This document shows, piece by piece, positions 32,594-54,350 of a DNA stretch of 64,000 nt. The stretch lies in assembly GCF_003334785.1 (NCBI RefSeq), contig NZ_QOWV01000003.1; one strand, written 5' to 3'. The notes under the pieces were generated by a model. The model saw only the letters and a program-made list of their open reading frames with translations, was not told the origin of the DNA and made no database searches. The DNA is from Escherichia coli (GTDB taxonomy: Bacteria > Pseudomonadota > Gammaproteobacteria > Enterobacterales > Enterobacteriaceae). How positions within the stretch are numbered: position 1 is the first letter of the stretch; every line of letters starts with the position of its first letter. The position numbers and the translations under genes are program-made.

Positions 32594-33058
32594 ATGGAAA
32601 AGAAATTACCCCGCATTAAAGCGCTGCTAACCCCCGGCGAAGTGGCGAAACGCAGCGGTGTGGCGGTATCGGCGCTGCATTTCTATGAAAGTAAAGGGTT
32701 GATTACCAGTATCCGTAACAGCGGCAATCAGCGGCGATATAAACGTGATGTGTTGCGATATGTTGCAATTATCAAAATTGCTCAGCGTATTGGCATTCCG
32801 CTGGCGACCATTGGTGAAGCGTTTGGCGTGTTGCCCGAAGGGCATACGTTAAGTGCGAAAGAGTGGAAACAGCTTTCGTCCCAATGGCGAGAAGAGTTGG
32901 ATCGGCGCATTCATACCTTAGTGGCGCTGCGTGACGAACTGGACGGATGTATTGGTTGTGGCTGCCTTTCGCGCAGTGATTGCCCGTTGCGTAACCCGGG
33001 CGACCGCTTAGGAGAAGAAGGTACCGGCGCACGCTTGCTGGAAGATGAACAAAACTAA
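32594..33058 (+). CDS. soxR: MerR-family redox-sensing regulator with 2Fe-2S cluster
   Basis: 154-aa [39 protein letters not shown]...; [12 protein letters not shown] cluster-binding motif. Confidence 0.95.
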
Positions 33059-33191
33059 AGCGCCACAAGGGCGCTTTAGTTTGTTTTCCGGTCTTTGTCT
33101 TTCTCTCTATCCCGCTGGTACACAGGAGGGTTTCCCCCGACGTCAACACACCTCATTCGAGCACGTGGTGGAGGTTCCGGTTGGTGTTGAT
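33052..33191 (-). ncRNA. ryjA: possible small RNA RyjA (placement approximate)
   Basis: Recalled from K-12 annotation as a ~140-nt sRNA antisense to the soxR 3' end; the only sequence support is the bidirectional terminator hairpin at 33056-33086. Confidence 0.3.
33056..33086. terminator. bidirectional terminator hairpin at the soxR 3' end
   Basis: ctaaagcgccacaagggcgctttagtttgtttt: stem ctaaagcgcc/ggcgctttag; T-rich tail on plus, TTTTGTT on minus. Confidence 0.7.
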
Positions 33192-52005: not shown

Positions 52006-54153
52006 TTACGCCAGTGCCGCTTCGCGCAGGCGAGTTTTCAACTTGTTGTACTCGTCAATCACGTACTGCTCGGCGGCGCGCTGATCGGCGATCGGCTCGA
52101 CGCGAACGGCGCAGTATTTGTACTCCGGCGTTTTCGTAATCGGGCTTAAGTTTTCAGTAACCAGCTCGTTACAGGCACCAATCCACCACTGGTAGGTCAT
52201 GTAAATCGCCCCTTTGTTCGGACGATCGCTGACCTGCGCACGGGTGATAATTTTGCCTTTACGCGAGTGCACCCAAACCAATGCCTCATCTTCAATACCC
52301 AGACGTTTGGCGTCTTCGGTATTGATTTGTGCGTAGCCAGGTTCATCAGCCAGCGCCGCCAGTGCCGCACAGTTACCGGTCATCGAACGGCAAGAGTAGT
52401 GACCAACTTCACGCACCGTTGACAGTACCATCGGGTACTCGTCGGTGAGTTTGTCGATTGGCGCTACCCAGTCGCAGGTGAAGAACTGCGCCAGACCGTT
52501 CGGGGTATCAAACTTCTCTTTAAACAGATAAGAAGTCCCCTGATCGGCATCTGAAGTATCGCGGCAAGGCCACTGAATGAAGCCCAGTTCGCCCATTTTC
52601 TCGTAAGTCGCACCGTAGAAATCCGGGCACAGATGACGCAACTCATCCCAGATCTCCTGGGTGTTGTTGTAGTGCATCGGATAACCCATACGGGTGGCGA
52701 TTTCACTGATGATTTGCCAGTCCGTTTTCAGATCCCATTTCGGTTCAACCGCCTTGAAGAAACGCTGGAAGCCACGGTCAGCCGCAGTAAACACGCCTTC
52801 ATGCTCGCCCCACGACGTTGACGGTAAAATAACATCCGCCGCCGACGCGGTTTTGGTCATAAAGATGTCCTGAACGATAACCAGTTCCAGATCTTCAAAG
52901 GCTTTACGTACTGCCGACAGCTCCGCGTCAGTTTGTAGCGGATCTTCGCCCATAATGTACGCGGCACGCACTTCGCCATGCGCTGCGCGGTGCGGCAGCT
53001 CGCTGATGCGATAGCCGGTATGCGCTGGCAGGCTTTCCACGCCCCAGGCTTTGGCGAATTTCTCGCGGTTAGCCGGATCTTTCACGTACTGGTATCCCGG
53101 ATACGTATCCGGCAGCGCGCCCATATCGCAGGCACCCTGAACGTTGTTCTGACCACGAACCGGGTTAACACCCGCATGCGGCTTACCGAGGTTACCGGTC
53201 AGCATCGCGAGGCTGGTCAGAGAACGCACGGTTTCCACGCCCTGGTAGAACTGGGTTACACCCATGCCCCACAGGATGGCGGCGCTTTTCGCCTGGGCAT
53301 ACATCCGTGCCGCCTGACGAATCTCACTGGCGCTGACGCCGGTGATATCTTCAACCGACTCCGGCGTGTAGCCTTCAACGATTTTACGATACTCTTCAAA
53401 GCCTTCTGTACGTGAAGCGACGAACGCTTTGTCGTACAGATTTTCTTCAATAATGACATGGCCCATCGCATTCAACAGCGCGATGTTCGAGCCGTTTTTC
53501 AGTGCAATGTGCATGTCAGCAATGCGCGCGGTTTCAATTTTGCGCGGATCGCAGACGATAATTTTCGCCCCGTTACGTTTAGCGTTAATTACGTGATTCG
53601 CCACGATTGGGTGGGAATCCGCCGGGTTGTACCCGAAAACGAACACTAAATCGGTATTATCAATTTCGTTAATAGCATTGCTCATTGCGCCATTACCGAC
53701 CGATTGGTGCAGACCTGCAACCGATGGGCCGTGTCAGACACGAGCGCAGCAGTCAACGTTATTGGTACCAATAACGGCGCGCGCAAATTTTTGCATTACA
53801 TAGTTGGTTTCGTTACCCGTACCACGCGAGGAGCCGGTCGTCTGGATGGCATCCGGACCGTACTTCTCTTTGATGGCGCTCAGGCGCTCGGCAACGTAAT
53901 TCAGTGCCTCATCCCAGGAAACAGGTTCGAGTTTGCCGCCACGCTGGCGACGGATCATGGGGGTTTTCAGGCGCGGGGTCAGGATCTGGGTATCGTTAAT
54001 GAAGTCCCAGCCATAATAACCCTTCAGACACAGGGTACCCTGGTTGGTTTTCCCCTGCGCTGCCTCCGCCCGGACGATTTTGCCGTTATCGACGACCAGG
54101 TTGATTTTGCAACCTGATGCGCAATAGGGGCAAACCGTGACGACTTTTTTCAT
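52006..54153 (-). CDS. fdhF: formate dehydrogenase H, selenocysteine-containing (UGA recoded as Sec at codon 140)
   Basis: ORF track splits it into 53734-54153 (MKKVVTVCPYCASGCKINLV...CCARV) and 52006-53685, in the same frame and separated only by one TGA (reverse complement of 53734-53736); reading through gives 715 aa. Confidence 0.93.
53690..53733 (-). other. SECIS stem-loop directing selenocysteine insertion at the fdhF UGA
   Basis: Minus-strand sequence directly 3' of the UGA reads cacggcccatcggttgcaggtctgcaccaatcggtcggtaatgg, matching the fdhF SECIS hairpin as I remember it (GGUUGCAGGUCUGCACC apical stem-loop). Confidence 0.8.
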
Positions 54154-54202: not shown

Positions 54203-54350
54203 TATGCATCTTTTATGCCACATTTTATGTGGGGTCATTCCCTGATATTACGGGCACTATTTATTCAAAACTCTGACGAAAAACAGGCTGTCGTCAGTTT
54301 TGACGTGACGAAACGAAATACCGCGTGACAGCCATCACGCGGCAGACATT
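54203..54350 (-). promoter_or_regulatory. sigma54 promoter and FhlA-type upstream activating sequence of fdhF
   Basis: Minus-strand TGGCATAAAAGATGCATA (reverse complement of 54203-54220; GG-N10-GC) about 50 bp upstream of the fdhF ATG; repeated tgtcgtcag / tgacgtgacg / cgtgacag motifs at 54290-54340. Confidence 0.65.

Follow-up and report, generated by a model that had tools for sequence, protein, structure and literature searches.

Formate dehydrogenase H (FDH-H) is the molybdopterin- and selenocysteine-containing enzyme of the formate hydrogenlyase complex, and in Escherichia coli K-12 its gene, fdhF (b4079), has gltP, yjcO, mdtP, mdtO and mdtN as neighbours. E. coli has two other selenoprotein genes, fdnG and fdoG, whose SECIS sequences differ from that of fdhF. 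Both share with fdhF the decoding mechanism, the enzyme superfamily and the catalytic position (PDB 1KQF was matched), but they occupy other loci, outside the window analysed here, and encode different, periplasmic enzymes exported by Tat. The fdhF-type elements of Firmicutes, Deltaproteobacteria, Nitrospirae and Chloroflexi place the UGA at the same position of the protein (CAR-x-U-H-x-P-x-VAG) and an apical hairpin, its loop containing the motif G-G-U-C, over the Val-Ala-Gly-Leu codons at an equal distance from the UGA. Their hairpin is a perfect 6-bp stem, GUNGCN/NGCNAC, closed by the 5-nt loop GGUCU and free of any bulged U, whereas in the E. coli type a bulged U divides the stem into two parts (3+3 bp), the loop is the 4-nt GGUC and the lower helix is long.

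The gene is a standard experimental model for the insertion of selenocysteine (Sec) in bacteria (e.g., PMC4513850). In that work, the exact fragment of fdhF containing UGA140 and the SECIS was used, and recoding was measured to depend on both the SECIS and selenium, with an efficiency of 30-40% and negligible read-through of the fragment when no selenium was added (PMC4513850). SelB binding and Sec insertion are published for this exact sequence, and in vitro Sec is inserted by just a fraction of the ribosomes, which leaves a truncated by-product (PMC4513850). Recoding at UGA140 of fdhF is thus a textbook bacterial case that is already known, and its occurrence in the DNA described here is biologically nothing new.

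The window, by which we mean the whole 64,000-nt stretch of DNA that was analysed, is collinear with the chromosome of K-12 MG1655 at ~99.98% identity. It carries fdhF at the same locus as K-12, with a single synonymous base difference from MG1655 (nt 1998 of the gene) and an identical SECIS region. The other differences are a few SNPs and an array of REP elements between gltP and yjcO that is ~338 nt (about three units of ~113 nt) shorter than that of MG1655, which is a copy-number polymorphism; the DNA is therefore not from MG1655 itself, and nothing relevant to the recoding differs. The features of the gene are as follows.

52006 to 54153, minus strand: fdhF coding sequence, formate dehydrogenase H, 715 aa, selenoprotein (from the reading frame, PDB identity, TIGR01591 and RefSeq)
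53734 to 53736, minus strand: UGA codon 140, selenocysteine (aligns with X140 of the PDB FDH-H chains and with Cys of Thermoanaerobacter kivui FdhF)
53734 to 54153, minus strand: apparent upstream ORF of 139 aa, corresponding to FdhF residues 1-139 and including the 4Fe-4S cysteine motif
52006 to 53685, minus strand: apparent downstream ORF of 559 aa from Met157, corresponding to the C-terminal part of FdhF

Translation of the minus-strand frame gives 716 codons, in which the only stops are the TGA at codon 140 (53736-53734) and the terminal TAA at codon 716, so the product would be 715 aa long if the TGA is decoded. This agrees with an earlier note on this DNA, which had proposed that a single TGA splits fdhF in the ORF track and that the correct product is one selenoprotein of 715 aa. 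The triplet is indeed what ends the 139-aa ORF, and the read-through product is identical to FDH-H structures. The note had also warned that a naive ORF caller would split the gene, and the loss is somewhat larger than the single codon: because the 559-aa ORF opens at the first ATG past the TGA, which is codon 157, codons 141-156, which encode the SECIS, disappear as well. Gene callers that treat UGA as a stop will therefore divide a selenoenzyme gene that is essential for function into two pseudo-ORFs and drop 16 SECIS-encoding codons. Once the recoding is recognised, the catalytic subunit of formate hydrogenlyase is recovered at its full 715 aa, and the practical value of this lies in annotation only.

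Across the species, a 2.5-kb query around fdhF has a hit in 5420 of the 5426 complete E. coli genomes, in which the region is annotated yjcO, fdhF and mdtP, and many E. coli chromosomes carry it with 100% identity; megablast with fdhF gave no match in the remaining 6 of the 5426, and 4 of the fdhF matches are on records typed as plasmids. RefSeq E. coli genomes annotate fdhF as a single CDS of 2148 nt. Of the 5421 E. coli records that match the 75 nt around the UGA, 5406 do so with an identity of 99% or more, all of them annotated as fdhF. In some PGAP-annotated genomes (E. coli RefSeq records H22 and H29), the product name given for fdhF reads [quoted passage not shown]; since FDH-N is FdnG, this looks like a product-name inconsistency. 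A 137-aa ORF also runs antisense to fdhF at 53704-54117 on the plus strand, overlapping the region of the Sec codon, and is most likely spurious, since it lies wholly within a conserved coding sequence whose product has been crystallised.

With X written at residue 140, the read-through product matches PDB entries 1AA6, 1FDI, 1FDO, 2IV2 and 7Z0T over residues 1-715 with zero differences, and these FDH-H chains likewise have X, a non-standard residue, at position 140. The NCBIfam equivalog model TIGR01591 (formate dehydrogenase subunit alpha) aligns in one stretch over residues 6-685 with 1089 bits, well above its cut-off of 666 bits, so that both homology and identity to a solved enzyme place the product in FdhF. 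The next-best structure is 7qv7_S, the FdhF subunit of the hydrogen-dependent CO2 reductase of T. kivui, in which a Cys is aligned with residue 140. That alignment is unbroken through the site (T. kivui segment …CARLCHAPTVAGL…), and the Cys sits within a continuous conserved block, CAR-x-HxP-VAGL, which means that residue 140 is not a domain boundary. The earlier note had named a genuine domain boundary in homologues as one observation that would count against recoding; instead, both 7qv7_S and TIGR01591 run straight through. It had also predicted Sec or Cys at the aligned position of known FdhF proteins, and the alternation between X140 and Cys is what would be expected of a catalytic selenocysteine. 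We take it from the crystal-structure literature that Sec140 of FDH-H is a ligand of the Mo centre, and it is at this ligand position that Sec or Cys is found.

The RNA around the UGA matches the Rfam family SECIS_2 (RF01988) over all 55 model positions, scoring 87.1 bits where the gathering threshold of the family is 70 (E = 1.4e-18 in a 5-kb scan and 1.8e-17 in the full window). This is the sole cis-regulatory match of the Rfam scan in the window; against Rfam SECIS_3 the window reaches 35.8 bits, short of that family's gathering score of 63. The parts of the element are listed here.

53687 to 53741, minus strand: full extent of the SECIS according to SECIS_2, with an outer helix of 5 bp enclosing the UGA (87.1 bits; minimum free energy (MFE) fold equal to the consensus)
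53695 to 53734, minus strand: main SECIS stem-loop, from the A of the UGA to nt 42 of a 47-nt segment (RNAfold)
53706 to 53722, minus strand: apical 17-nt hairpin GGU-U-GCA GGUC UGC-ACC (fold and model alignment)
53712 to 53715, and 53719, minus strand: GGUC loop, and bulged U (fold and model alignment)

The 47-nt segment is the one that the earlier note had put forward as the SECIS, at 53690-53736. RNAfold gives it a single imperfect stem-loop of -14.9 kcal/mol that has a bulged U and is closed by a GGUC tetraloop. The boundaries have to be moved slightly: the 5 nt at its end (53690-53694) are unpaired when the segment is folded in isolation, and the Rfam extent is 53687-53741. Over that 55-nt extent the MFE fold is identical to the SECIS_2 consensus structure. 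The UGA occupies positions 6-8 with the frame open on both sides, and an outer 5-bp helix is formed between GUGUC, 5' of the UGA, and GGCGC, past the stem (53737-53741 with 53687-53691). Between the UGA and the point at which the upper hairpin begins to pair there are 11 nt. We presume that the apical hairpin is the minimal element bound by SelB and that the GGUC loop, with its G and U exposed, together with the bulged U, provides the determinants for SelB. In sum, the element has a family-level score, a site 3' of an in-frame UGA, a hairpin with GGUC loop and bulged U, and pairing that is retained in orthologues.

Hairpin stability, which the earlier note had offered as a test, turned out to be a poor guide. 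The segment folds as claimed, but its energy is indistinguishable from that of shuffled controls: against dinucleotide shuffles, z was -0.94 for 47 nt, -1.23 for 55 nt, -1.73 for 40 nt and -0.24 for the 146-nt context. Thermodynamic significance of the hairpin was accordingly rejected as evidence at all four lengths (z from -0.24 to -1.73), since values so near the shuffles give no independent support for a SECIS. What marks out the site is its specific architecture and its conservation rather than the stability of the hairpin, and the support for the SECIS is the covariance-model score, covariation in relatives and published experiments.

The covariation was examined with a degenerate pattern, C-A-R-[VIL]-UGA-H-[GA]-P-x-V-A-G, which has 24 specified bases and for which our own arithmetic gives a chance expectation of ~0.03 matches; it was found at 120 loci or more in the genomes of other species. 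The 55-nt extracts of the matches listed sort into two classes, A and B. Class A comprises, among the matches listed, 22 distinct sequences from Enterobacterales and Pasteurellaceae that have the E. coli fold, with standard pairs in 92% of cells against 23-50% in slid controls and with the apical 3 bp and the loop invariant in all 22. The model's A17-U39 pair is kept in just 7 of these 22 listed sequences, and the sole compensatory pair among them is G20-C36, which becomes U-A in three. Since the listed class A sequences are 94% conserved and offer only this one compensatory pair, support from covariation comes mainly from more distant relatives.

Class B supplies it, with 86 distinct sequences among the matches listed, from Firmicutes, Deltaproteobacteria, Nitrospirae, Chloroflexi and others, which share the 6-bp stem GUNGCN/NGCNAC and the GGUCU loop and have no bulge. 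In the 5' arm of this stem, only the wobble positions of the Val and Ala codons are free, and these covary with their partners: in the 86 listed sequences, one pair is GC in 39, AU in 13, CG in 12 and UA in 12, and the other is CG in 59, AU in 15 and UA in 2. Among the listed class B matches there are 54 doubly changed cells, where shuffles yield 15.3 ± 3.2; the same set has a covariation score of 0.357, and slid controls reach at most 0.127. We read these alignments as direct evidence that an RNA structure is under selection over these codons in the family, obtained from relatives in which the helix has another register. A small subgroup among the matches listed (GUAGCGGGUCUACAG/ACUG, within loci L007-L126) appears to use yet another register.

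The outer 5-bp helix is 99% paired across the Enterobacterales and Pasteurellaceae among the matches listed, in which the wobble C of Gly155 is invariant. It could conceivably have a function of its own, for example by sequestering the UGA from RF2 or by aiding refolding of the SECIS between ribosomes, an idea that we consider doubtful; alternatively, its pairing may be a by-product of conserved codons.

Taken together, these observations make it virtually certain that the UGA at codon 140 of fdhF is decoded as selenocysteine in formate dehydrogenase H by means of the 3' SECIS. In the mechanism that we envisage, the mRNA directly 3' of the UGA, which codes for residues 141-155, folds into the bacterial SECIS stem-loop, and its apical hairpin would be the binding site described in the literature for the C-terminal domain of SelB, a specialised elongation factor. 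This factor would carry GTP and Sec-tRNA(Sec), the selC product with anticodon UCA, which would have been charged with Ser and then converted by SelA using selenophosphate made by SelD. According to the literature, the lower helix would be melted by the ribosome as the UGA enters the A site, where the tethered SelB ternary complex would deliver Sec-tRNA(Sec) in competition with RF2. Sec140, once inserted, would then ligate the Mo centre, as the literature describes.

The machinery for this is expected outside the window. ARAGORN found no tRNA in the window, so selC must lie elsewhere, and neither selA/selB nor selD nor selC is located in the window. The K-12 annotation lists selB and selA (b3590, b3591), selD (b1764) and selC (tRNA-Sec, UCA), and in complete E. 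coli genomes DNA matching selA/selB is found in 5426 of 5426, selD in 5426 of 5426 and selC in 5425 of 5426. The selAB and selD matches include strain 300709, which has an fdhF region 100% identical to that of the window. The suggestion that selA, selB, selC and selD would be found elsewhere in the genome is thus borne out at the level of the species, at which all four genes needed for selenocysteine decoding are present.

Two other readings of the UGA deserve consideration. If the TGA were a genuine stop, then fdhF would be either a pseudogene or two genes, one for a 139-aa Fe-S protein and one for a 559-aa molybdoenzyme. Such an arrangement is what a mechanical ORF list suggests, with its exactly two ORFs, and a truncated product does form in vitro, where Sec insertion is partial (PMC4513850). 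A pseudogene or a gene pair would not, however, be expected to show a TGA that, together with its surroundings, is conserved in 5420 of 5426 E. coli genomes and lies within a single annotated CDS there, nor to leave the frame open across the TGA and the homology to single-chain homologues unbroken, with TIGR01591 spanning residues 6-685 in one stretch. There is also no start codon or ribosome-binding site placed for a restart at codon 141, the first ATG being codon 157. The crystal structures hold one chain of 715 residues, and the full-length 80-kDa selenium-containing protein is already published and contained in PDB 1AA6 and related entries. We therefore regard termination at codon 140 as the natural end of a gene as extremely improbable.

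The homologues also bear on a subtler possibility, in which the UGA is read through but no Sec is inserted. The decoding could, for example, be done by a near-cognate Trp-tRNA or by tRNA(Sec) misloaded with Cys, and the hairpin would do no more than slow the ribosome. The unremarkable stability of the hairpin would fit such a non-specific role as far as folding goes. The element, however, matches a covariance model specific to SECIS elements and its GGUC loop is invariant; the species has the complete Sec machinery; the residue at position 140 in homologues is Cys and not Trp; and the fragment needed both selenium and the SECIS in order to be read through (PMC4513850). Read-through of this kind is, in our judgement, just as hard to believe as a genuine stop, and decoding of UGA140 as selenocysteine is the reading that we retain.

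An element of the sigma-54 promoter type lies ~50 nt upstream of the fdhF ATG (TGGCATAAAAGATGCA).

54206 to 54220, minus strand: sigma-54-type -24/-12 promoter element TGGCATAAAAGATGC, 5' of the fdhF start codon and separate from the recoding signal (sequence and pattern match)

The sigma-54 pattern is mildly enriched in the window, with 24 matches against 14.6 expected. Inverted GTCACGTCA/TGACGAC motifs are found further upstream, at ~54283-54310 on the minus strand. These motifs and the element at 54206-54220 would, we presume, fit an fdhF promoter that depends on FhlA and is inducible by formate, together with its upstream activating sequence. Directly after the stop codon of mdtP, at ~54318-54343 on the minus strand, a G+C-rich hairpin (GCCGCGTGA…TCACGCGG) is followed by a U-rich run, which is probably an intrinsic terminator separating the mdtNOP operon from fdhF.

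Elsewhere in the window, repeats of the REP/BIME type (Rfam naRNA4) are present at 51035-51105, 51148-51218, 220-290, 4449-4519 and 40429-40499. The Hfq-binding sRNA sraL/RyjA is encoded at 33051-33191 on the minus strand (153 bits in Rfam), where it adjoins soxR as it does in K-12.
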